This document shows positions 4,800 through 42,986 of a stretch of 64,000 nt of DNA, piece after piece. Below the pieces are notes generated by a model. It was not told the origin of the DNA. It was given only the letters and a program-made list of their open reading frames with translations, and did no database searches. Position numbers and translations under genes: made by a program. This stretch comes from Sphaerodactylus townsendi (lineage: Eukaryota). Where the stretch lies: positions 5,890,001 to 5,954,000 of the forward strand of contig NC_059438.1 in assembly GCF_021028975.2 (NCBI RefSeq). The letters run 5' to 3'. The stretch's first letter is position 1. Every line of letters starts with the position of its first letter.

Positions 4800-5350
4800 G
4801 TAAATGACATCCTTCCAATCACAGCTGCTCCGCTCAAACGCCCCTCCCCATGGGCGGAGCCAGCCACGGAGGGGGCGCGGCTTCAGGCCACCTCAGTCAC
4901 GTGCCCCTGGCGAATATGCAAATGATCCGTCAAGAACCTGCACGATCGCCTGCCAGTCCTGCCGCCGCCGCATCCTCGGGCCCTTCTCCCCCTCACCGGA
5001 AGTGCCCGACCGGTTGGCGGGGGAGGGGTCGCGCCGGGCAACATGGCGGCCGCCACCGCCTCTCCTCAGGAGCCCGCTGGGCGCGCCGGCCTGGCTCTGG
5101 GGCGTCCCCCGCGCTCGACTCCCCGCGGCGTCCTCGAGCGCCCGGCTGGTCCGTGGGAGCTGGTGAGGCCTTCGGTGACGGATCTCTCGCGGGCCGTCCG
5201 GAGCAACATCCTGTGCACCGTGCCGGGCTGCGGCAAAGTGCTGCCCAACCCGCCGGCGCTGAGCATGCACCTCCGCAAGGCCCACCGCGTGGAGCAGGTA
5301 GGCTCGCTGCCACGCCCCTTCCCTGCTCGCCCCGGGCTTCAGTGGGAGGG
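4800..5350 (+). promoter_or_regulatory. ATMIN CpG-island promoter
   Basis: Dense CpG. CCAAT near 4814, GC boxes, E-box GTCACGTG 4896-4903, octamer ATGCAAAT 4916-4923, ETS/GABP CCGGAAGTG 4996-5004, YY1-type AACATGGCGGC over the start codon. Confidence 0.8.
5043..5297 (+). CDS. ATMIN: ATMIN (ATM interactor/ASCIZ) coding exon 1
   Basis: ATG at 5043 in good context (caacATGG) in a CpG island. Encodes ELVRPSVTDLSRAVRSNILCTVPGCGKVLPNPPALSMHLRKAH, the first C2H2 finger of ATMIN. Donor CAG|gtaggc after 5297; 255 nt, phase 0. Confidence 0.95.
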
Positions 5351-5621
5351 AAGGGACGCCACCTTCGATTGTTTGCTGGTTTCATTCATTCATACCTTCC
5401 CTTTCTCCCCAGTGACGACACAGAGTGGCTTGCATCTTACTCCTCCCCTCTGTTTTATTCTCACAACAACCCTGTGAAGAAGGCTAGGTGGAGAGAATAG
5501 GGCTGGGCCAAGGTCGTCCAGGCAGCACCAGTAGGGATTTGAACCTGGATCTCCCAAACACTAGGCCGATATTCCCAAGCTCTGCACCATGCTGTTTGCC
5601 AGTGTGCTTTAAAAATCACTT

Positions 5622-11041: not shown

Positions 11042-11702
11042 GTAATGTCTGTATTTTCACTGTGGAATGAACTGAAAGTGTAACTGCTCTGTGTGTGCAT
11101 GCATGCATATTTTCGCTTTTAATTTAGGTTGTTCAGAGTCTTCTCAACTTTCACAAGTTGCTACCACTGATTGTTCCTTTGCTCCTTTTTCTTTTTGCTT
11201 TATCCTAAATTTTCCCTTGAAAGTGAGCAGGGATTTTCCCAGGCTATGTACAACCAAGAACAATTCAGGGAGTTAGCTACCTGTTGCGTTTCCATTCCCT
11301 TCTCCCTCTCCCACCCCCAAGTTTAGGAAGCTGGATTGGATCCTGCTAGCACCCGGTATGCTATGGTGAAAATCACAGGACCTACGTGAACAAAAGCCAC
11401 GTGAGGCAGGGACTGTCATAAAAAGGGAAACTGAGCTTGCTTTAGCAAAAAAGCTGATTGGATGTGCCCTAGTGCTGTTTTGAATATTGGACTTAAATCT
11501 TGCTGAACTATCTGCAGGGTAACTTAAAAAAAAGTTGTCGTCACAGTTCAAATGTATCGGCTACAAATTTTGAACAATGGCTTTCTTTGGCCAGGAGTGA
11601 TCTCAAAGATGCCTTCTGTTGACTATTGCCCAAATCAAATTAAAACTGTTGAGATTTTTCTAAATAGATCTGCTTTGAATTCCATATGTTGAATATTTAC
11701 AG

Positions 11703-13527
11703 GGATCCACCGTGTAAGAAACGGAGAATGGAAATGGCAGCCTCCAATCATCAGCTGGGAGAAGAAGCAACAGAAAGCTCTGGCGATGCTGCTAGCCGAC
11801 GTGCTGGTACTAAAGACTTGGAGACATCCGAGATAAAACTTGCAACCTCTTTAGAGGATTCCACCCATTGCTGTACCACTAAGCCAACACAGGCACAACC
11901 AAAAAATGCACCAAAGTTGCTTCTACCGAAGCCCAAAGTAGCTCTGGTTAAACTTCCTGTAATGCAGCTTACTCACTTGCCCGTATGCCTGTTGGCACCA
12001 GACTCTTCTGTGAAACCCGTCGTCGTTGCTGTGGATGACAAAGGCTCTGTAATGAGCACGGTTCACTTAATGCCTCTGCCGGTAGGAATTGTACTACCAA
12101 CGATGGAGGCTGAAGCACTTACTTTTAGAGACACAGCACCCCTTTCAAAAACCAAAAGCTCTGTCAGCTTTGAGCCGGTCAGCACAGGAATCCAAGTCGA
12201 TTTGGGTAAAGCGGCCTCAAATAGTGCAGTGCAGGGTCTGGAAGCCGTATGTTACAAGAACGGGATCTGTTCCACAGACATCCAGACGGACCTGTCCTTT
12301 ATTGCACAGAACTTTGCACCCTCTGCGTCTTGGGCTCCCGATTCCTCCGTGTCCTCTTGTTCTCAAACCGATCTGACGTTCAGTTCGCAAGTTCTGCTGC
12401 CCATTAGCGTTCAGACACAGACTCTGTTGCCGGGTTCGAAGCCGACCTCATCCATCGCTGCCCAGACGGATGCTTTTGCCCACGCTTGCTTTCAGTCATG
12501 TGGAATTTCGAGAGAGACTCAGACCAACAGGTCCCAGAAGGGGATGGATGGAAGAGTACAAATGGACCAGGCTGTGATGTGCAATGACATTTTTGACGAT
12601 GTTACTTCGTCGTTCGATTCATCCCCAGTGGTCCTTTCTGGCAGCAGCTTGATTGCCAGTGAGCTGGATCAGAACCTGCTACAAAGAGAAACCTGCAAGT
12701 CTTTGAGTCAGGACGCAAAATCCGAGGCGATGATCAACTTCAGCACACAGCATAATCTGCTTCCGCAGCAAGTTATGACTGACAACCAAACTCAGACCAT
12801 GGAGTTATTGAGTGACCTTGAAACTATTTTTTCAGGTAATACTGCTGAGCAATCATTACATAACCGTGGTCTTCTGACAGATGCTAACCCTCACGCTGAA
12901 CCACCCCTGCCTTCTGGCCCTAACCAGAATGCAGCAATAGATTTTGACATTGAGGATTTCTTCACTGCCTCCAATATCCAGACTCAGACAGAGGAGGCTG
13001 AATTCGGTAACTTGACCTCAGAGCCGGTCTTGGAATCACTGGATATTGAAACTCAAACGGACTTATTTTCAGACAACACGGTGCAGCCATACAACTGCAG
13101 AGGTAACGTGAACTTTTTGGGCCTGGAGATGTTTGACACGCAGACCCAGACCGACTTGAACTTCTTCTTGGACAGCCCCCATCTGCCTCTGGGCAACATC
13201 CTGAAGCAGTCTGCCTTCTCCATGAGCACAGACTCATCTGACACAGAGACACAGACAGAAATGCAGCTTCTGGAGAGAAACGCCTTAAGCCAGGTGGCCG
13301 AGAGCAAAGTGCAGCTGAACAGTGCCGAGACACAGACTATGGACAGCTGCTTTGAAACCTTTAGTAGCTTATTCCTTACGAGCAACGAGACTCAGACTGC
13401 CATGGACGACTTCTTACTGGCTGACTTGGCCTGGAATACAATGGAGTCACAGTTCAGCTCGGTAGAAACGCAGACTTGTGCAAAACTGTGCTCTTTGTTT
13501 CAGGATTCTGACAAGGCCGGCCAGTGA
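11703..13527 (+). CDS. ATMIN: ATMIN coding exon 4 (SQ/TQ cluster, DYNLL1-binding TQT motifs)
   Basis: Acceptor atttacag|G completes the Arg codon, then DPPCKKRR. Contains KLLLPKPKVALVKLPVMQ, many xxTQT motifs and DDFLLADLAWNTMESQFSSVETQT. Stop TGA ends at 13527. Spliced CDS 255+126+200+1825=2406 nt, 801 aa. Confidence 0.97.
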
Positions 13528-21152: not shown

Positions 21153-21998
21153 TCAGTTTCCATACCCCCTTGAACTAGCAACGTTTGCATATCGCTCTGA
21201 ATGAGACATCATGCTGCGCAGGGAAAAGAATGGGTCAGGTGAGTTAGGAAGGCAAGGTAAATTATCTCTGAGCATTAAGGACACATGGAAGAGTGGTACA
21301 TGATTTTTTATTTGCTTTGTTGCTATAATATTCATCTCACCAACGTTTCTTTTACTCTTTTGCTTTCCTTTTCTAATTTTGGGTCTGTGGGAGTCGGTTT
21401 CAGTTGAGGTGCTGCTGCTTCCCCCTTTCTCAGTTCTTTTTGCTGTAATTGTTTCATTTTTCTTCGAAAGGGGTTCCACATGGAAACTGACCATTCCTTT
21501 TCCATCCGGTTTTAGGAACAACATTTCATTTAAGGTTGGATAGCTAAAACTGCTATGGGAGTTACTGTGAATTATTTTCGGCAAGCGATACTTGGGGTAT
21601 TTTAGGACCGCAGGTTCTGTGTGTCCTAGAGAGTACTCAATCTCATATTCCTTTATTGGGAGGATCCTCTTTTCACCAAGGAATGCCTGAATGCTGTCTA
21701 GTTTGCCATTCCTTCTTTCTCCCTCAGGGTGAGCAGGTATCGGTGGAATATAGTTGTATGGCTTCACATAAGAGGCTTCTAACTTCTTACAGGTTGAAAC
21801 AGTTTCTCCTGCAGCAAACTTACAATATGTTTTTGCCCGAACTCTCGCAGGTTGTCTTATACCAGTCAGATTTCTCTCAGGAGCAGAAGCCTTGCTTGTG
21901 TGAGATATATTAGAGACTGTTTTGCTTATTCTTGGGTTCTTGGGTTTTTCCTGTCTCTTGCAGCATGCGAAAGGAGTAGCTCTCCCCCAGCCATGTTC
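21153..21998 (-). CDS. Diverged duplicate of the C16orf46 terminal exon (candidate alternative last exon or paralog), 281 aa
   Basis: Acceptor ttttatctttccag|GAA, phase 0, at the same position relative to GW as the main exon. EHGWGRATPFAC aligns to VQGWNKTAPFAY; EKRILPIKEYEI aligns to EKKAVPIREYSI. 846-nt open frame with no stops. Confidence 0.75.
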   Translation of the reverse strand, partial: EHGWGRATPFACCKRQEKPKNPRISKTVSNISHTSKASAPERNLTGIRQPARVRAKTYCKFAAGETVSTCKKLEASYVKPYNYIPPIPAHPEGERRNGKLDSIQAFLGEKRILPIKEYEIEYSLGHTEPAVLKYPKYRLPKIIHSNSHSSFSYPTLNEMLFLKPDGKGMVSFHVEPLSKKNETITAKRTEKGGSSSTSTETDSHRPKIRKGKQKSKRNVGEMNIIATKQIKNHVPLFHVSLMLRDNLPCLPNSPDPFFSLRSMMSHSERYANVASSRGYGN

Positions 21999-24900
21999 CT
22001 GGAAAGATAAAATCACGTTGCATGTAAAACTGAGAATTTGGCTGCTGGACTTTGTAATTTTGTAGCCACCGGCATTTAATGCAGATAACTTAGCCACCTT
22101 TTCTAACTAGAAGTGGTTCTGAACTTTGGCGAAATTCTTTTCCAGCCTGCTCAGGTGAAGGGAACTGTACAATATTGCTTTGAGTTTGCAAAATAAGAGT
22201 TAACTATTCCACTTAAACGTTGGACATAATTTGGGCTGTGATGGTTGTCAGCATACTGAGTAACGGGAATGTAACTTACAAGAATCAGGATCCAAAAATC
22301 TACTTAAGCCCATATTGTACTATCAGGGGACTTTTTTCCTATAAGCAATTGGCCCACCCACAGTATATCAAACTGGTTTTTACGCTCCCTTCAGTTTACA
22401 AGTAAACATCTACCAGTTTTGCCTGCGATAGGATACTAAACCTTTCTTGTAATTTTTAAAATCTTTACAGAATCTTTGGTTGTTCATGATTACGATGTAA
22501 AACAAGGCTTTGTATATACAATGGAAAGCAACTTGAGAGCATGTAACCGATGTATAAGTGTCAAATGCTGAATATGGAATACAACAGATTTTATCTCCTA
22601 TCTTGGTAATGCATGCCCTGTGCACTCTTTCTTGTGTTCCACAGAAACACACACATCTGTTAATATATTTGTTATAGAAAGTTCAATGGAACCAATTTTT
22701 ACAATCACACATTCCAGCTAAATTGTAGACAGAAAAGCTCAGTGATGTTTTTCATCCTCACAAAACATTACATACAAATGCTCTGTTGAATGCAAAACAC
22801 AATAAAGCAGATTTTTTATTTTTTAAAAAAACTATTAAAATACACTCTGTTTTAAAGGGAACTGATAATCCACCAGAACTGTAACATCCATTCGTTTGGG
22901 CTTTGGGGCTAATGGGAATATTAACAAAAGACATGAGCCAACCAAAGCTAAGAGCTTTTTTTAGTTTGCTTCATTCATATTAAAGTGTTGTCAAGTTGAG
23001 GCTGACTTTGCGTGAACCCACCCAAGGGGTTTTTAAAGCAAGAGAGGACAAGAGGTGGTTTATCATTGCATTCCTCTGCATAGTAGCCCCAGTTTTCCTT
23101 GGTGGTCTCCCATCCAAATACTAACCTCAGCCAACCCTTCTCTGCTTTTATTTATTTATTTATTTTATATATTAGATTTAGGAACCGCCCACCCCCGAAG
23201 GGCTCCAATAGGCTCAGGGTTGGCTAGAGTATTCAGGCGACTTTTTGTTGGTTTAGAATATTTATATACCACTTTACCCCAAGAGTGTTGCCACTTTGAT
23301 TTCAATGGGAGAGTTAGGCATTTGCTAAAGAATCCCCCCCTCGGACGCAGCGTGGCACGCACCTCCAAATGGACCTGTTAAAACCCAAGGAGGCTTTGCT
23401 ATGCTCTCTTTGCTACTGGGCAAGAGTCCATTGGGCTAAAGATGGATCAAATATTGTTCACATTAGTGCCAGTTTCCTCCCCCTCTTTTGGAAGTTGTTG
23501 ATGCTCTCACTGGAGTAGCAGGAAAGTTAACTTCGATGCCTATTAAACCCTGTTGTCCAGCTTTCTCCCTTGGTTTAAAACTGGTAATTCAATCCTCCAG
23601 TATTACAGCTTTTCACATTTGAATTACTCACAGAGGGGTAGCCATGTTAGTCTGTTGTAGCAAAATAAAACAAAATTCCAGTGGTGCCTTAAAGACTTGC
23701 AGCCCAATTCAGATGGGGTAAGGGGCAGAATGGCTGTGAGAGCAGCACAGGACCATACTGATGTATTTGCCTACTCTGCTGGCATAAGGGGCACCTACAC
23801 CAATGGGGAGAGCAAAATATTCTGCCCATAACATTCAACAAGAGCGTTTGTGAGTCAAGAGCTAACTTCTTTAGATATGTGAACAAGTGAGGTCTGATTC
23901 ACAAAAACTCACACCAAAATAAATGTTAATCATGAAGGAACCACAGGACCTTTTTCCACATTTAAAGCCTCTGCATTTTCATTTGCACCAATAGTATGGG
24001 CCAATTATTTTTATTCACTGTAAACAGGGACAGTGATTTCATACTTAGAAAGTATCATGATTCTCTTTTTTGTCAAAAAGCCAAAAACTGCTTATTTTCT
24101 TTCTATTTAGCTTTATTTTCAACTATTAATATCACTCAGTTCATAAATATGAAAGAATAACATCGGCTGAATGCAGGAACCATGCACTCAATCACACATA
24201 GGTTTCAATATGGCATTAAAACACTTTTTTTATCACTTAGCAGGTTTATATAGCCAACTAGTTATAGGCATGTCATGGTAAGTTACTACTATGGTTGCCT
24301 GTATCTTCCTCTTATCCAAAAGTTTGCTTAAAGCCCCACTTGAGTTAGATCACACAATCCTTCATAATTTCTCCAGTGGAAGATTCTTCACTTGGCAAAA
24401 GCCAACCGTTGGATGTAAATTACACAGATTTTTGCCTCTTAAGAAATGTAGTTCAGTTTTTTAGTTCAGTGCCCTTACTGTTAGTTGAGCACACAAGGCC
24501 TCATGTTACACACTTGTCGAATAACTTAAGCTTAAAACCTGCTGTTACAGACTTGCTGACCAGTAATTCCATTCATATCTCCTTGGAGATAATTGGGTTT
24601 TCATTGGAAAAGGGCCATTGCTGAGCATTTGTTCTCTATGTTGGTGGCATTTTAACACTTTTGTTTAAAATGCCTTTCTGCCGGTGTAGAGAACTGAAGA
24701 CCAAGTCTCCACAGGCTGAAAGAATAGCAACTATCTTATATCCGTGTCTGCAATTGAGAATACTGATTCTTACTTTGATTATGACCAATTTGTATAATAC
24801 CTTATAGAAGACCTGTCCTTTTCTTGAGTACGATTTCATGTTGGTCAAGTGTAATATAAAATGTGGATTGTGGAGGAGATTACCACCAGAGGCTTCCATT

Positions 24901-26246
24901 ACGTTTTCCAGTGGTTTACACTCATGAAAAATTCTGCCAGCCATCTCCGCAACTGCCCAGATTGCACACTGTGGGGAGGACTGCAGCTGCTTGCCTGGGC
25001 AAGAAATGCATTTTGTTAACTAGCAAGTAATGTACATACACCCTTGACTAGTAGGTAAGACCTCTTTGTAGTTTCAAAAACATATTCAGCACTCTGATAT
25101 TTTGAGTATAGAAGACTTAATGGGATATCTACAAGAGTATGACAAGTACACATTTGTAGATTTGTTGGAGATTAAGAGCAATTTGCAAAACCATTAGGAG
25201 AATAAAACTACTTGTAGATTTCAAATCTAAGTGGGCTCTGTGAATCTCAGATTTAAAGTTACACTGGAATATCAGAAATGCCATCACCTCCCCACAACTC
25301 CAAATGCATCAGGTAAGATGTAAGATAACTACAGCAGGTGACGCTGAGGAAATCTTGACTCAGATACTGAGGAACACTGTCACTGTGCATACAAACAAAG
25401 CATCTTCTGGAAGCTATGTTATCAATCTGAGCTACTTAATTTGGCATGAAGGAGAACAGTCACAGCTACCTTAAACTGAACAAGTACAATCAACACAAAG
25501 AAAAAATAACAGCCAAATACTAGTTCTGTTTACTTACATTCTTACATACTCATCAAACATAAAAGGAATTGTTACAACAAAATTATGGCACCCAGACATG
25601 ACCATATTCAACTGCTTTGCAGTGTTAGAGAGGCTAGATGATTACTTCAGATACCTTTCTTGGTTCTGTTCTATCAAAGTGCTTGGGCCAAGCCTGTACA
25701 ACCTGTGACCAATCAAACTACAGCCTGCCAGGACTCCCCAGTCTTTGCACCAGACGGGAACTTTTAGTGGGCTGTTACACGTTGCTTGTGGGCTATACCT
25801 AGCTTGATGAGTCTAGTTGTGCAGTTTTGGGAAGGCAAGGCCCAAGTCTTTATTTATTTTATTTATTTTTTATTTATTTTCGATTTATTATACCGCCCCA
25901 TCCCCGTAGGGCTCTGAGTACGATTTGGCCATCAAAGAGAACTTGGCAATATCTCTGACTACTTTGTTTTCCCAGATTGGCGGGAAAGACTGGCTACATT
26001 TCTGGCCTTGCAATAGCTCCTACCAACTGTTCAAATCAATGAGGAGAACGCAGTTCACACTTATCTAATCTAGGGCATAGGAAGTACTGATACAGCAGGT
26101 ATCCGATCCCCCAGATAAGAGCTGTGAGGGTCTCCCTTTAAGGACATGAAGGTTTTACTATATCAAGGGGCCTCATCCAGCCATTGTACTTTATCAAGGC
26201 TTGCTGCAGAGAGCTCAACCGAAATCAAGTGTTCAAGGGTCTACAT

Positions 26247-26382
26247 CCGTGGTGGCGAACCTTTGGCACTCCAGATGTTATGCACTACAATTCCCATCAG
26301 CCCCTGCCAGCATGGCCAATTGTAGGGGCTGATGGGAATTGTAGTCCATAACATCTGGAGTGCCAAAGGTTCGCCACCACTG
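26247..26382. mobile_element. Palindromic hAT MITE
   Basis: Near-perfect hairpin; TIRs ccgtggtggcgaacctttggc / gccaaaggttcgccaccactg; 8-bp TSD gtctacat. Confidence 0.9.
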
Positions 26383-26583
26383 GTCTACATGTTACAAGAG
26401 GAGTGAATGGAAATTTTAAGTTTTTCATAAAAACAGATTCAGTCCTTTCTTCACAAAATAGCACCTATACGATTAACAAATACCCAGTCTGGTTTACAGT
26501 AGACCTTCAGTATTTTCTTTCATAATACAAAGAGCTCCAAACAAATCAATAAACAGCTCAGCATGAAAATTACAATAAAACAG

Positions 26584-27690
26584 TCAGGTCAGCCTAGAAG
26601 GCAAGGCAGTTATTGCAACATGGCTGACCGTTAAGGAAGGGAACAGTCCAGAAAGCAGTGGGATCTCCTGTGTTTTTGGCTCATTTCCTGGTTTGGGTCC
26701 AGTGTGACTCCTGCTTCGGGCGCAAGGATCCCAATTCTCATCGGCTTTGCTGTCACGAGCTCCTTTAGTATGCAGAAAATGCACACCGGAGAGATGACTC
26801 TTTCTTCTCAATGCAACTGAATTAGACATGGCTGAATTTTTTCTCTCGGGTACAAGAGTACAGCGCCAGTAGCACTGGTCCGTGGTTCCTGAGATGCATG
26901 AAGTCTTGGGACACTGTGGGGCAAAAGAGGCTCTCTTGTGGATTTTTACCGACTCCTTGAATGCATCACCTGTTGGAGGTATTCCTTTCTCATGTTTGGA
27001 TTCTTTGGTTTTGAAAATCTGAGTGCGATAAATTGTCTCTGAAAGAGCTCGAGTTGCTTTTTCATACGCCTGGAAAATAACGGGCTTACTTTTCTTTGAC
27101 GAAGGGTCCAGGCTGCATTTGAAAACTGTGTCCTTCAGAGGAGGCAAGAGCAGTGACGATTTAACAGCAGTCGCTTCAGAGTCTCCCAGATGACCTATCG
27201 TAGGCTCGTGGCTCTTTGTATCTTTGCATCTCAAGGTTTCTACACTTTTTGGCTTTCCAAGAGGCAATATGCTGTACTCTCTTATTGGCACCGCTTTCTT
27301 TTCTGCTTGGAGTAGCTGACTCTCCTTCATTAGAAAAGTCTTCTTTTCGCTTAAAGAAACTTGAGCTTCCTTAAAGGACAATCTTTTCTTTTCCCCTTGG
27401 GATGTCTGGGTTGAATATAATTTACTACTACAGTTGTCTTTTTTTGAATCGTCAACCACAGGGTAAGTACTCAGAGCTGTATTAGAATAGAGCACAGTTT
27501 GTTTCTCTGGAACGCTGCTTGTGGTGACCTCTGAACTTAACTTGGAGTCTTGCTCCAAACCTTTGTCAATAACTTGCATCAGATCTAAGCAATACAGGCA
27601 GCCATGGACAGACTCACTTGTCCTTGTTTTTCTAGCTCTTTTTTGTAACTGAAGATAAGCAAATGGGGCTGTTTTGTTCCAGCCTTGCAC
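26584..27690 (-). CDS. C16orf46: C16orf46 homolog (DUF4529), terminal coding exon
   Basis: Acceptor ttgctctcag|GTG, phase 0. VQGWNKTAPFA...CLYCLDL...EKKAVPIREY...LLLPPLK...LFPSLTVSHV match C16orf46 motifs. 368 aa here, 438 aa in total. Confidence 0.93.
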   Translation of the reverse strand: MQGWNKTAPFAYLQLQKRARKTRTSESVHGCLYCLDLMQVIDKGLEQDSKLSSEVTTSSVPEKQTVLYSNTALSTYPVVDDSKKDNCSSKLYSTQTSQGEKKRLSFKEAQVSLSEKKTFLMKESQLLQAEKKAVPIREYSILPLGKPKSVETLRCKDTKSHEPTIGHLGDSEATAVKSSLLLPPLKDTVFKCSLDPSSKKSKPVIFQAYEKATRALSETIYRTQIFKTKESKHEKGIPPTGDAFKESVKIHKRASFAPQCPKTSCISGTTDQCYWRCTLVPERKNSAMSNSVALRRKSHLSGVHFLHTKGARDSKADENWDPCARSRSHTGPKPGNEPKTQEIPLLSGLFPSLTVSHVAITALPSRLT

Positions 27691-27989
27691 CTGAGAGCAA
27701 ACAGACAGGAATGCAGATTAGAAACAGGGTAATGTTGATGCTTTAAAAAAACAAATACACTTGGGGTTGCCAGCCATAAAGCAATGAAACTTACCAGCAA
27801 CCCCTTTAATAAACTTTAGGCCAGTTTTGCTATAAAACATCTACAGGAAAAGTAGTAGTCAAACTAGCCTCTCGTTAAAGTTATCATTTTCTGTTCAAAA
27901 CAACGCAGCTGAAGCAATTCTTAGCTCTGACGGCATATCCCATTTATCACAGAATTCTGATGGTGTTGTTCAGCAAACCTTAAATCCAC

Positions 27990-28713
27990 AACACGGTGGA
28001 AACAGAGCAGCCTCTACTGACTTAAAACAGTGAACTTCTCTTTCAGGCAAAGCAGCCAGTGTAATGTGAGGGCTGAACTTCAGTGTTCAATAAGATGACC
28101 AACAAATGCCAGTGTCGTCTAAATATTCCTGGAGCTGTTGAAGCTTTCTTTGCTGTTTAAAAGAAAAGACCGTTTCAATCAGGACAGAATTAGTTTGGCG
28201 GAGCACGACTGCCACAATGGCATAAAAACCTGGTCGCTTTCTTATCTACAGGCCCCTTTTCCATCTTGCTGTTACTTCACGACGCGCACAGATCGACCAA
28301 AGAACAGCCTCTTGCTTAACAGCGTGATCTGTTTTTTGTAGAGTTGACTGACAACTTCGTCAAAGAGTTTTCCCCCAACACCACCAGAAGTGTTGGCCTC
28401 TCTAAACTCTAGTTGAATCAACTACAGAATCAACAAAGCACAAGTGTCTTGGGACACCCAAAAACTTCCAAGCCTCTTAATTTTAACAGGGAACTGCTGT
28501 TCATTGCTGCAAAGATTTCAAAGCATCCGGTAGATCTCTTTAGGGACCTCTGAGCAATTGCTAACTCCTCTGTACTTTTCCTTATAGGTCTTAATTGGGC
28601 TATGCGGCTAATGCCTCATCTGCACTCTTTCCTCAGGCTAAACATGGGCAACTGTTTTCCAGCTGCTCTGCTAATGCATGATACAGGGGCTGCAATGGAC
28701 CAACCTATAGCTG
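27990..28713 (-). pseudogene. Possible decayed third copy of the C16orf46 terminal exon
   Basis: cag|ct ATA GGT TGG TCC ATT GCA GCC CCT GTA TCA TGC ATT reads IGWSIAAPVSCI, the GWxxxxPxxCI pattern. About 510 nt on is LILS*LK (cf. LLLPPLK), then LHW..LPER (cf. CYWRCTLVPER). Contains stops and frameshifts. Confidence 0.4.
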
Positions 28714-30361
28714 GCCAGTAGGATGCATAGCTTCCCTGTTGCCCCTTCCTTATTAATGGGAATTATAGTACGATCTTATTCTTTTAAGGTTCCGTTTATT
28801 TAATTTTCAGCTTATGAGCTCTGCTAGATACATAAGCTGCCTTTGTGTTGACATATTTGGATAAGCACAGTTAGAGTACATTCCATGAAATCTGTGTGTC
28901 TTAACTATTGGGTAAATAAAAACAATGACGGCTACATGAAAGAATCAGTTAAAGCAACTGAGCTGTTCAGTTCATGTATTCATTCAGTTCACAAAAAGAG
29001 CCAACATGGTGTAGCGGTTAAGAGTAGCAGACTCTAATCTGGAGAACTGAACTGTAAGTGACCTCAGGCCAGTCACAGTTCTCAGAACTCTCTCAGCCCA
29101 CCCACAGGCAGGCAATCGCAAACCACCTCCCAATGTCTCTTGCCTTGAAAACCCTGCTAGGTCACCGTTAAGTCAGATGTGACTTGACAGCACTTTCCCC
29201 AACAAAACACAACTGACGTCTGAACATGAGTTTTAAACAGAATAGCCTATGTAACTGCATATTGAAATGTCATCATATGTTATGGGAAATCCCAGGCATT
29301 TCAAGTTTTAAAGCAGTTTTATATTTCAACAGAGAACCAGCATGCTGCAGTGGTTAAAGTGTCAAGTCAGGATTTGGGAGAACTAAGTTTGAATCCCCAC
29401 TCTGCTATGAATCTTGCTGAGTGACCTTGGGGCAGTCATACACACTCAACTTTAACCCTGGCAAGGATTTGGATTGGAGACCTCTAAGGGATACCATGGT
29501 TGTGTCCCAGAGGCAGGAAACAGCAAACGACCTGTGAACTTCTCTTATCTTGAAAACCCTACTGGGTTGCCATAAGTGAGGAGTCACTTGATGGAAATTT
29601 AAAAAAATCCAACAATTGTTGCTCCAGCTAAAGAAAATTGATTCACACACTTAAACCAACTTCGATCTACATTTCAAGAGCAGCTGTAAACAGGATGCAT
29701 CTGTGAGATCTGCACATTGAAATGCAGATGCTGTCTGTCTGCATTCCCTTGGTTGCAATAAAATGCATTTTTGATGTGCATTCTGCGAAGCCCATAATCA
29801 TAATTTTATATGCACTTAAAAGGAGATTGGGGTGCCTGCCAGTAATGTGTGTTATATTAACTACCTTGAAACTGCTAGAAGTATGAATCTATTAAAAATA
29901 TCTGAAAGAACTTTATTTCTTTTCTTGCTTAAAGGTTAATGGCCTTATCCAAAGAAGGAGCGGCGCGTGGCTGTGCCAGCAGATTTGCCTTCCTTGGGGC
30001 ACTTGCCCCAGGGGAGAAGCAAGTCAACAACAACAGTGGAGAGGCGAATCCTCCGGCGTTCAGCCACCGTCCGCGGCCCTCCCCGGTGCAGGGACACAGC
30101 ACCAGATGCAGTGCCAGCATCGCAACACTGCCACCATAGTGGCAACAGCCACTGAAAAGGTGGCGTAAGTCTCTTGAGTCCCATGGGGGCCTCTCAGCGG
30201 TGAGGAGGCTTTCCTGCTTTGTTGGCCTCCTCACATCACCAGGAAGCCTCTATGGGAGGGGTGGGGTGGGGCGGCTGCCATGCCAGTCATCCATCTGGCC
30301 ACTTGGATAGGGCTGTCCAGGTAGCCAGAGTGCATAGGACTTGCTTACAAAGAACATTATC

Positions 30362-30495
30362 GAATCATAGAGTTGGAAGAGACCCCAAGGACCATCAAGG
30401 CCAACCCCCTGCAATTCAGGAACACACAATCAAAGCACTCCTGACAGATGACCATCCAGCCTCTCTTTAAGAAACCTCCAAAAGAGGAGACTATA
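30362..30495 (-). mobile_element. CR1 3' end fragment
   Basis: Reverse complement ends ...ggtctcttccaactctatgattc, the typical CR1 3' terminus. Confidence 0.8.
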
Positions 30496-30565
30496 TTGTA
30501 AAGAAGAAGCAGACTATATTGTAGTAATTGTTCTCGTTTTGTTCATGAGTCTAATTAATTAATTA

Positions 30566-30566
<1 letters not shown>

Positions 30567-30600
<34 letters not shown>

Positions 30601-31047
30601 AATTTATAGGCTGCCTCATCCCCGAAGGGCTCGAGACGGCTCACAATATGGCTGTTCTACTGAACAGCAATCAACAGTATAAAATCAACAACATAAAACA
30701 CTAAACCCATTAAAACCTATGCAGCGATTACAAACAGCAAAAAGCTATAAAAGACAACCAAGGTTCTTATAAAACAGAAGTTGTTTAAAAACAGGCGCCC
30801 GATCTGAGGCTAAAAAGAAAGGGAGGGAGTAGGCTGGGCCCACGACGGAATCCAAAAACAGGCCCAATTGTAATAAAAGATGGAACCTAGCAGCCTCAGT
30901 TTCAGTGGGGGGCAGCAGAACCACGGCTGGCCCCTCCAAAAGCCCGGTGGAATAACTCCGTCTTGCAGGCCCTGCGGAACTCCCCAAGGTCCCGCAGGGC
31001 CTGGACAGCTGGAGGTAGAGCATTCCACCAGGCAGGGGCCAGAGCTG
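30567..31047 (-). mobile_element. L2-like LINE 3' fragment with (AATC)n tail
   Basis: Minus strand reads cagctctggcccctgcctggtggaatgctctacctcc...ttccgcagggcctgcaagacggagttattcc, then the attgtgagccg tail and a microsatellite. Confidence 0.7.
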
Positions 31048-31068
31048 TAGCATACAATTCTTACTCAC

Positions 31069-31278
31069 TGCTTCCTCCCATCCTGTTCCATTAACAGACT
31101 CCAAGGACTTTTCTTCTTGCTCAGTTGAACTTTTACTGATGTTCAAAAGAATGTGGATCTGATTTCTCTCCCTTCTCTCATCCGGATAAGTGCAGCGCCA
31201 GTCTCTTTCCACAGTTTTCCCATTTGCAGTAGCTCTTTCAGAGTTGATTTCACTTTGATCCTGGCCAGTGGAAGTCAT
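31069..31278 (-). CDS. C16orf46: C16orf46 homolog (DUF4529), first coding exon
   Basis: Encodes 70 aa MTSTGQ...CTYPDERRERNQIHILLNISKSSTEQEEKSLESVNGTGWEEA, matching the recalled mammalian YTCPDGKSEKNHVYCLLDVS...EQDEK...GTGWEEA. Donor GCA|gtgagtaag; upstream acceptor tttataaatacag| at 31317. Confidence 0.92.
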
Positions 31279-31403
31279 TACAGTTGCTGTCTCTGCAGGT
31301 TGCAAACGTTCTTCTGCCTGTATTTATAAAGGAGATGGAGTTTAAAATACTGGTAGTGCCTTCAGAAAATGTGCCTTATATTACCATAAGATGTATGGGA
31401 CTT

Positions 31404-31670
31404 CTACTGACTATTGCTGGCTGCTGTGGGTTTTCTAGGCTGTGTGGCCGTGGTCTGATAGTCCTAATGTTTTGCTAGCATCTATGGCTGGTATCTTCAT
31501 AGGCATGTCACAGTGAGACATGTTTCTCTCTGTCCAGACACATCTCACTGTGACATACCTCTGAAGATGCCAGCCATAGGTGTGGGCAAAACATTAGGAG
31601 CAAAACCTACCAGGAACTCAGCCAAACAGTTCAGGAAATCTGTTGATTTCAGCCATGAACGTCTTCAACA
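31404..31670. mobile_element. Penelope-like derived palindromic element
   Basis: Inverted arms ctatggctggtatcttca...tgaagatgccagccatag; same family as 32440-32705. Confidence 0.6.
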
Positions 31671-33019: not shown

Positions 33020-33440
33020 ACAGACTCACCCCATATCACTGTATCCCCTCTTTCAGATACGTCCCTGGTGGGGGTCTCCCCTTCACCCCAAACTTCACCA
33101 CCCGCCTCCTTCACCTGTCAGTCTCCGGGCGAGGGTGGGAGGCAGCAGGGGGCGGAGCAAACGACGAGGGAGGCGCAGACGGGCGTTGCGGGGCGCTGCT
33201 CTGGGAGATGGAGCCGCTGCGGATGCGCTCATAGTGCGCAGCCGCTCCCCCTCCTCTGACGTCACCCTGCCCGTCTGCACGCCCGCCGGCTTCAAAACCG
33301 TTGCCATGGGTTACGGGGGTGGTTTGGAAGGGAAGAAGTCCAGAGGATGGGGCGTGCGGTGGGGGCGGGGCTGAGGGCGGTTGAGGGGGCGACCGGGGGA
33401 GGAGTCTGAGGGGAAATAAGATACGTTCAGAAGGGAGGCT
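33020..33440 (-). promoter_or_regulatory. C16orf46 CpG-island promoter and probable non-coding first exon
   Basis: CpG-rich. Full CRE TGACGTCA 33257-33264, RFX X-box GTAACCCATGGCAAC (- strand) 33300-33314, GC boxes. Minus-strand donors g|gtgagt near 33029 and cag|gtgaag near 33114. Confidence 0.7.
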
Positions 33441-40361: not shown

Positions 40362-41920
40362 CCCTATGGGAACATTGGGGCAGCGTGGCTGCAGTACTGC
40401 GGCCAGCTGCCTGGCCTCTTGAATGGATCTCAGGGAAAAAACACTCTGTCCTCTCAGCACTGACTGAAAACTGGGACTCCAGCTGCCAGCCAAATACAAG
40501 CTGCTGTGGTTAACTCCTTGTAGGCTAGAACTTTGATTACAAGCAGCAAAGGAGTCCTGGAATCCATCACAGCCTACAATAGATTACATTTTTCTCGATC
40601 TGTAGTACTGCTTCTGATTTTGATTATGACTTATAAGATTCTCTATTTGCATTTTCATTCTTAGTTTGAGAACCAACATGGTATAGTGGTTAAGACTGAC
40701 CCAGGACAGCTTCAAAACATCATGCACGCCATGGAAGCTTGCTTGGGTCCCTTGGACCAGCCACATACTCTCAGCGCTGTCACCGTGGCTAGTATTTGGA
40801 TGGGAGACCTCCAAGAAATACCACGATTGCGAGGCAATGGCAAACCATCTCCAATCTAGGGGTTTTCAGTCTTTTGAGAAATAGGACACCACAATATTCT
40901 AAGTAAATAAAATCAGAGCAGTAAAAATGCAAATAATAAATTAAGCAAAGAGATTTTTAATCAAACCTCCATTTGTTAATTTTGTTAAAACAACCAGCAC
41001 ATATTAAAGCAGGAGTGAATTGAGCTAGGTTACTAAATGCTTTCTGCTTTTATAGAAGTGGCACTGCTTTTCTCTAATCCTCATAATTTTTACATCATCA
41101 GGGTACTGCTCTATGCCATTGGCTTTCTTTTCACGCCAAAGGACGCTCCATTTTCCTGATCCGCGCCTTTTGCCTTTGACAGTGACTGAGCGCCTCTGCA
41201 GCTGAAGCGCGGCTGCCTTATTGCAAGTGCATGCCAGGGGATGGAGCTGGCTTCACTTCCTCCTTTTCAACGCGTTTGCAAACTCGCCGCACGCTCATTA
41301 GCCTCCTTCCCCCGAGCCAGGCTCTGGGTCCGCTACTTGCGTAACGGAGGAGGATGGCGCGATGCCTTGTAATGGCTCTGCCGGGGAATCCCTTCTGCCG
41401 CCGCCTCCTCTTTTGGATCTCGCTAAGGGCACCGGGGGAGCGGGGGAGGCAAAGGAACCGTCACGACCAAGGAAGAGGCTGGCGGCGGCGGGGAGAGGGA
41501 AGGAGGCTCCGGCGAGGCCGGGGGAGCAGAGGGGGCGGGCAGGCCGAGAGGAGGGGGCGGAGAGTGGCGCGCTGATGAATCGGGACGCGGACACGAGGCC
41601 CGGGATGCGTAGATTTTGCTGCATGACTCCGGCACGACGTCAGCAGCGGCACGTCCAGACGGTCTCCCCCAGAAAGCGCGCCGGACTCCGCAGCCGCGCC
41701 AGCGCCCGAGCAGTGCCGCCACGGCAGCAGCAGCAGCAGCAGCAGCGGGGGGAGCTCTCAGGCCAGCGCGGACCGCGGGAGGGGGGCTGCGCTTGAGTCA
41801 CGACGACCCGCCGGTTCTGCAGTCAAGAGACCTCCCGACGACTCCGGGCTCCCCCGGCCGGAAAGGGCTGTAGCTGCTTGGCCAGCGCCGCCGGCCGTGC
41901 CTCAAGGGACGGAGCGAGCC

Positions 41921-41929
41921 ATGCACTGA
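41921..41929 (+). promoter_or_regulatory. Minimal uORF (Met-His-stop) upstream of the PPP1R3 start codon
   Basis: gagccATGCACTGA, ending 19 nt before the main ATG at 41949. Confidence 0.6.
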
Positions 41930-41948
41930 CCGGACGGAGAAGAAGAGC

Positions 41949-42986
41949 ATGGAGAAGGCCGGCTCCCTGCACGCCTCGGTGCCGGCGCCGCCGCCGCGCC
42001 TCTACCTGCCGCGCCACTTCAGCTGCAGCGCGTGCCTCTATGGCGGCCTGGCCGAGCGCTGCAAGGGCGGCTGCAGCCCGGAGCCCGAGGCGGTGGAACT
42101 GGCGCCCTCGCCGCCCGCCTCGCCGCCCCCCGTGACCCGCCAGGCGCCCTCGCCGCCTCCCGCGCCGCGATCGCCCTCGCCGCCGCCCGCCTCGCCCTCG
42201 TCGCCCTCCGCCTCGCGCGGCAGGGAGCCCACGGTGTCCGCCGTGCCGCCCAGCCCCACGCTGCGCCGCCGGGCCAAGTCCCTGCCCACGCCCGGCGAGA
42301 GGGGTCTCCGGCCGGCCCTGCAGCAGAGCCCGTCGCGCCGCAAGACGGTGCGCTTCGCCGACTCGCTGGGCCTGGAGCTGATCGCCGTGCGCCACTTCTG
42401 CCAGGCCGACGTGCCGCACGTGCCGCCCCCGCCGGCGCCCCTGCCCGCCTCGCCGCTGCCCCGCGCCGCGGACCTGCTCAAGACGCGCAAGCCGCCGGCG
42501 CTGGGGGAGCTGGAGCCGGTGCTCTTCGGGCCGCCCGCGGGGCCCGCGCTGGAGCCGCTCTTCCCGCCGCAGCCCGGCAGCAGCGCCGGCTTCCTGGAGC
42601 GCGTGCGGCAGAGCAAGGTCCGGCTGGAGGCCGTGCGGGCCGAGGCGGCGGCGCTGCGCGGCTCGGTGCGCGTCCTGAACCTGGCCTACGAGAAGGCCGT
42701 CTCGGTGCGCTACACGCTCAACCGCTGGGCCAGCAGCCACGAGGTGCCCGCCGCCTACCTGCCGCCGGGCCACGCCGGGGACGGCCTCACCGACCGCTTC
42801 GTCTTCCGCCTGCCCGTGGGCGCCGGCGCCACCTGCCTGGAGTTCGCGCTGCGCTACCGCGTGGCCGGCGCCGAGTACTGGGACAACAACGACGGCCACA
42901 ACTACAAGCTGCGCGCCCGGCACAGGCCGCCCGACGCCTCCTGCCCCCAGGCCGACGGCGGGGGCGCCTGGATCCATTTCATCTGA
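41949..42986 (+). CDS. PPP1R3E: Protein phosphatase 1 glycogen-targeting regulatory subunit, PPP1R3E-like (single coding exon, 345 aa)
   Basis: RVxF PP1-docking motif KTVRFADSLGLEL. CBM21 motifs GSVRVLNLAYEKAVSVRY, DRFVFRLP and FALRYRVAGAEYWDNNDGHNY. C-terminal WIHFI is typical of PPP1R3D/E; RRAKSLP motif present. Family assignment is firm; exact orthology (E, D or a separate paralog) is not. Confidence 0.88.
   Translation: MEKAGSLHASVPAPPPRLYLPRHFSCSACLYGGLAERCKGGCSPEPEAVELAPSPPASPPPVTRQAPSPPPAPRSPSPPPASPSSPSASRGREPTVSAVPPSPTLRRRAKSLPTPGERGLRPALQQSPSRRKTVRFADSLGLELIAVRHFCQADVPHVPPPPAPLPASPLPRAADLLKTRKPPALGELEPVLFGPPAGPALEPLFPPQPGSSAGFLERVRQSKVRLEAVRAEAAALRGSVRVLNLAYEKAVSVRYTLNRWASSHEVPAAYLPPGHAGDGLTDRFVFRLPVGAGATCLEFALRYRVAGAEYWDNNDGHNYKLRARHRPPDASCPQADGGGAWIHFI

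Follow-up and report, generated by a model that had tools for sequence, protein, structure and literature searches.

Likely tandem duplication of the terminal exon of C16orf46 in a gecko and other reptiles

Duplicated terminal exons and the C16orf46 gene

Duplicated exons are known to exchange C-terminal regions, and such events form an enriched class according to the main text of PMC9741552. In that account, 77 of 236 human tandem duplicated exon substitutions replace the C-terminal region with a homologous one, and the term C16orf46 does not occur in the main text. In other vertebrates, C16orf46 (DUF4529) consists of a first coding exon, E1, and a large terminal exon, an arrangement that is also found in reptiles. 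The proteins examined from mammals, amphibians, coelacanth, and fish carry one domain only.

The stretch of DNA analysed here, called the window, comprises 64,000 nucleotides of contig NC_059438.1 from the gecko Sphaerodactylus townsendi, and its features are listed in Table 1. The locus resembles the C-terminal duplicated-exon class in having two homologous, consecutive 3' coding exons, B and D, that share an N-terminus, and in that the pair is old, diverged, and likely disordered. It is unlike this class in that the copied exon amounts to about 80% of the protein, and in that the copies are only 24% identical in the gecko (40% in turtle). A further departure from strictly exclusive substitution is that gene models also join B and D in tandem, by way of a donor inside B. 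The reading preferred here, at a probability of roughly 80%, is that the gene has two homologous last exons derived from one tandem duplication, which likely predates the separation of turtles and lizards, and that D likely either replaces or extends B.

The isoforms are already present in public annotation, in reptile models (Zootoca X2, Thamnophis X2/X3, Anolis X1/X2, Pangshura, Mauremys, and Pelodiscus) none of whose names identifies D as a second copy of B. The duplication itself is undescribed within the literature searched. Among the titles listed, from a library with few subscription journals, no paper on a reptile C16orf46 duplication was found, and no paper using DUF4529 was returned.

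In a Pfam search, E1 matches DUF4529 positions 9-72 (E 1e-11) and exon B covers the rest of the profile. Together they form the public protein P0001 (438 aa), labelled Sphaerodactylus townsendi, which is the only model seen for this species and from which exon D is absent. The original prediction took the exon at 31278 as the first; it is the first of the coding exons, with a GC-rich promoter and a likely non-coding exon upstream of it at about 33.1-33.3 kb. The promoter had also been described as germ-cell or ciliary, which fits the X-box, the CRE, and the literature leads discussed below, with both motifs being readings of sequence. The X-box pattern was a loose one and matches nine places within the window. 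No Rfam match at gathering score was obtained in 20-34 kb, self blastn of the window yielded repeats only, and a metagenome scan gave 24 pattern matches and no relative.

Table 1. Features of the C16orf46 locus in window coordinates
Feature	Position	Strand	Remarks
RFX X-box-like palindrome, promoter	33300..33314	.	Pattern scan; predicted from sequence
CRE palindrome, promoter	33257..33264	.	The only one in the window; predicted from sequence
Non-coding first exon, likely	33115..33250	-	Donor after 33115; start approximate; sequence only
E1, first coding exon	31069..31317	-	ATG 31278; 70 codons; phase-0 donor after 31069
Segment A motif	28673..28711	-	13 codons, GW-like; an AG one base away
Exon B, canonical DUF4529 terminal exon	26584..27690	-	368 codons
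Internal phase-0 donor of B, candidate	after 26629	-	End of PSLT motif; use inferred from other species' models
3' UTR of B, long, likely	24015..26583	-	Includes segment C; RNA cover and AATAAA signals
AATAAA signals behind B	25889-25858, 24117, 24015		Sequence
Exon D, intact paralogous terminal exon	21153..21998	-	281 codons; phase-0 acceptor

Relationship and age of exons B and D

Exon B had been predicted to be the canonical exon, and its score against DUF4529 (PF15032; E 6e-23, 82 bits) passes the curated cut-off of 27. Exon D alone fails Pfam membership by score, at E 0.1 and 12 bits. This weak match stays collinear across profile positions 72-253, and another D-type protein scores 24.7 bits. 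Profiles of B and D were built from homologues, with the window's own rows excluded, and were applied with a frameshift-aware aligner. The B profile scores 48 bits on D and the D profile 49 bits on B, compared with background maxima of 21 and 20 bits; these scores are reached by none of 280 background windows and none of 100 shuffles. A DNA pair-HMM comparison of D with B gives 20-32 bits, which no background window among 190 equals, and self tblastn of the window pairs B with D at E 0.001-0.02. Thus, by protein profile and by DNA pair-HMM, exon D is a true paralogue of B.

Both exons are open, lie consecutively on the minus strand in the order B then D, and have good AG acceptors in phase 0, the phase of the E1 donor. 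The description of D as an intact, diverged copy is upheld by its open frame, its matching phase, and the reciprocal profile scores. The original prediction had also allowed that B might prove the only segment to score by profile. D does so as well, whereas segment C scores as background and segment A is borderline.

Homologues of D comprise eight matches at 40-67% identity, five of them assigned to squamates, and the exon is conserved across geckos, lacertids, iguanians, and snakes. A tree of 43 rows, from proteins only, included 16 D rows, one of them from a turtle. The D sequences came from the two closest to that of the window, a lacertid, iguanians, snakes, Pangshura, and P0071, which keeps B-like sequence further toward the C-terminus; the Pogona row has a short B-derived start. 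The 16 D rows fall together in a single group (100/100) that excludes every B row, which points to a single old duplication that likely occurred before turtles and lizards parted. A squamate-only duplication is rejected at p-AU 0.0045, a value to be read with a group chosen after the tree and with long branches present. The turtle-lizard split dates to about 280 million years ago.

Judged by gecko sequence against five squamates, D evolves faster than B (41-50% versus 55-60% identity). In turtles, D breaks off after 36 residues in two models of Mauremys and after 17 in one of Dermochelys, and is intact in Pangshura; in M. mutica the remainder of D is a separate gene model. As read from these protein models, D would have been lost in some turtle lineages. 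Among the differences between the window and the close relative that provided RNA run X5, the six fixed ones listed for D (from 40 of 1447 rows) comprise four amino-acid changes and two silent ones, with no sign of strong constraint, and are too few for a selection test.

Several local features of the two exons were also seen. The D tail (21320-21153, minus strand) is read in three frames in different lineages, namely the gecko's own, one matching lacertid and snake ends, and one matching Anolis and Phrynosoma ends, so the last ~45 residues are likely unconstrained. Between a pair of similar EKK motifs (27370-27280, minus strand), squamate B holds ~30 extra residues, which are missing from turtle, crocodile, and marsupial B and from all displayed D rows. 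This stretch is an insertion later than the B/D split, and is perhaps an internal duplication. Two self-complementary MITE-like elements lie at 26242-26387 and 31431-31638, and a contig of another organism (organism B) has ~220 fewer bases across 25844-26381, a shortfall that may be an insertion difference.

Transcription and splice forms

Three RNA runs, X5, X6, and X7, were matched by species label, and the organism of X5 is a close relative whose sequence shows fixed differences from the window. In X5, depth is 325-345 over B and 158-386 at six listed sites in D, and it is 5 at position 22098, just upstream of the D acceptor, versus ~260 at 21879. The B-like depth of D and the sharp fall before its acceptor show that both exons are transcribed in one tissue sample of this close relative. 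A neighbouring gene's exon at 13.0-13.6 kb has a depth of ~3 in the same run. Expression is confined to this one of the three runs, as X6 and X7 give B a depth of at most 2 and D about 1 or less. Depth over D seems to fall across its last 230 bases. Many RNA molecules start at 21383, beside an A-rich run within the D coding region and with an AATAAA at 21312; these starts represent either internal priming or an early 3' end.

The listed read-junction rows are crowded by repeats, so the splicing of E1 to D and of B to D was inferred from public gene models, which are predictions and may copy each other. Other species have models for the distinct coding transcripts E1-B and E1-D, alongside models in which a shortened B (B') is joined to D. 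Four public proteins, from Zootoca, two Thamnophis, and Anolis sagrei, are of the E1-D type in which D replaces B. The B'-D form, joined at the PSLT motif, is found in 12 proteins from six squamate and four turtle species, and three further models end in D in another reading frame. The original prediction of a constant N-terminus with a variable, duplicated C-terminus is supported for B and D, although not for more copies, and it overlooked D appended to B through the donor inside B.

Under the proposed scheme, the 70-residue E1 would be spliced to B to give a protein of 438 aa, or would skip to D to give one of 351 aa. B would likely act as a composite exon, in which the donor near its end joins D to yield a doubled protein of ~705 aa and thereby drops the conserved last 14 residues of B. 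The choice of form would then be a competition between cleavage after B, which might take place near the AATAAA run at 25889-25858, and splicing to the D acceptor. In the gecko this internal donor is a weak match to consensus. A sperm-whale model also exits its B-type exon at the PSLT point, into a tail of seven residues where reptiles have a second homologous exon, and this suggests that the donor likely predates the duplication and that D likely took over as its acceptor.

A bolder suggestion, to which the odds are somewhat unfavourable, is that the doubled B-D protein is the main reptile product, having lost the B tail conserved among vertebrates and gained a second, fast-evolving DUF4529 half. 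It fits the X5 data, in which D depth is about that of B and the UTR behind B has less than a tenth of it. Because repeat reads mask 25.9-26.5 kb, depth cannot separate E1-D from B'-D. As separate observations, two Pelodiscus models (P0061 and P0166) are chimeras of another sort, in which the initial portion of B runs into the middle or the end of D, and a Podarcis model named 'CMC2 isoform X4' (P0027) consists of C16orf46 E1 plus part of B, through either read-through or merged annotation.

Segments A and C, function, and gene neighbours

A quite improbable alternative makes D a paralogous gene in its own right further downstream, or a by-product of read-through, and the joined isoforms artefacts of annotation. 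Two assemblies do annotate D, wholly or in part, as a gene of its own (P0040 and P0051), and the listed junction rows hold no E1-to-D or B-to-D joint. But there is no second E1 within the window and no match outside E1, B, and D, and exon D begins at its acceptor rather than at an ATG. The step in X5 depth at that acceptor also speaks against a separate gene, as does the recurrence of the same two junctions in models from many species. Less credible still is the array of three or four copies turning over by birth and death that was first proposed, in which segment C (about 25.05-24.2 kb) would be a remnant copy. Damage to D in some turtles could be taken as turnover, and the first part of C resembles the tail of a single Gekko kuhli model. 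That match can be followed only through a change of frame and past a stop, which fits conserved non-coding DNA. No homology links C to either B or D: it stays at background with all five profiles used (89 and 90 of 280 background windows score as high with the B and D profiles, and 59-128 of 136 in a second profile comparison), and with the DNA pair-HMM 18-134 of 190 windows do as well. Also, no DUF4529 match was found in six frames of C. RNA cover in X5 continues from the upstream UTR, with depths of 12-105 at listed sites from 25413 to 24407 that show no break at the AG near 24994; it drops to ~2 below 24052 (2.2 in bin 23438-24051), beside the AATAAA signals at 24117 and 24015. The library covers both strands about equally, so the direction of this cover is not given; it fits the far part of the 3' UTR of B. 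As for turnover, the tree holds one D clade among its 43 protein rows and requires one duplication only, without repeated independent ones, so a single old birth was followed by retention in squamates and damage in some turtles. The array has two members, with C behaving as 3' UTR and A as a 13-codon trace at best.

Segment A (about 28.8-27.95 kb), which had been read as a decayed GW-exon, presents a closer case. If it were a dead third copy, the locus would once have had three homologous terminal exons, and this is unlikely. The motif at 28711-28673 is the third-best exon-start motif in the window, behind only D and B, and its strand and intron are both the right ones for a copy, with an AG one base off. 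It scores 22 bits with two broad profiles, a level reached by 0 of 60 shuffles and by 2 and 0 of 136 windows, and when A and B are aligned simply as DNA, 3 of 200 shuffles do as well. But with the D profile the motif scores 16.8 bits, as high as in 14 of 136 windows, and among 128,000 positions a score of ~17 bits over 14 columns comes close to what chance gives. The DNA score of A against B is also matched by 16 of 288 other windows. The match stops at column 13, and the rest of 28.7-28.0 kb is without homology. Over its full length, A is equalled by 74 and 46 of 280 windows with the B and D profiles, and the pair-HMM, which is able to detect D, detects nothing in A (67-131 of 190 windows as high). 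Self tblastn of the window gave nothing useful for A or C, and stop counts show no depletion in either segment relative to intron windows. RNA depth is zero at 27736-28963 in all three runs, and no A-like exon follows E1 among the homologues listed. Segment A is thus likely ordinary intron, and of the decayed exon a borderline 13-codon motif is what stands.

The two-exon reading can be set beside what is known of the protein. The predicted fold of E1+B has a pLDDT of 38 throughout (a low-confidence result from a 20-row alignment), and as weak evidence it fits products that are likely largely disordered. We take mouse 1700030J22Rik to be the orthologue of C16orf46. A reference title quoted in PMC12838328 describes that mouse gene as testis-specific and essential for sperm flagellar function. 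In PMC13429901 human C16orf46 is called largely uncharacterised, and in PMC6787516 it appears as one hub gene of an airway module that contains many cilia genes; the passages of PMC8113627 add nothing on its function, and that of PMC9542162 concerns another gene. C16orf46 probably acts in the sperm tail, and its products would likely be motif-bearing scaffolds in the sperm flagellum or cilium.

If the doubled form is the main product, the gene might tune sperm-tail structure through its choice of a single B, a single D, or both joined, D having been retained by every squamate sampled and lost piecemeal among turtles. Should the gene of the cited title indeed be the mouse orthologue, reptiles carry a natural two-version form of this sperm-flagellum gene. 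The few motifs common to B and D point to the residues that likely do the work in an uncharacterised family. The locus opens no new class of mechanism, and it offers a clean case of one duplicated exon serving as both substitute and extension.

Other genes were recognised in the window. An intronless, GC-rich open reading frame at 41874-42986 (plus strand), divergent from C16orf46, has a CBM21 domain (E 4e-27) and an RVxF-like motif, and presumably encodes a PP1 glycogen-targeting subunit. Also on the plus strand are an ASCIZ zinc-finger exon at 4926-5477 (E 5e-10) and a long TQT-repeat open reading frame at 11668-13527 with no Pfam match, which together are likely ATMIN, convergent with C16orf46.
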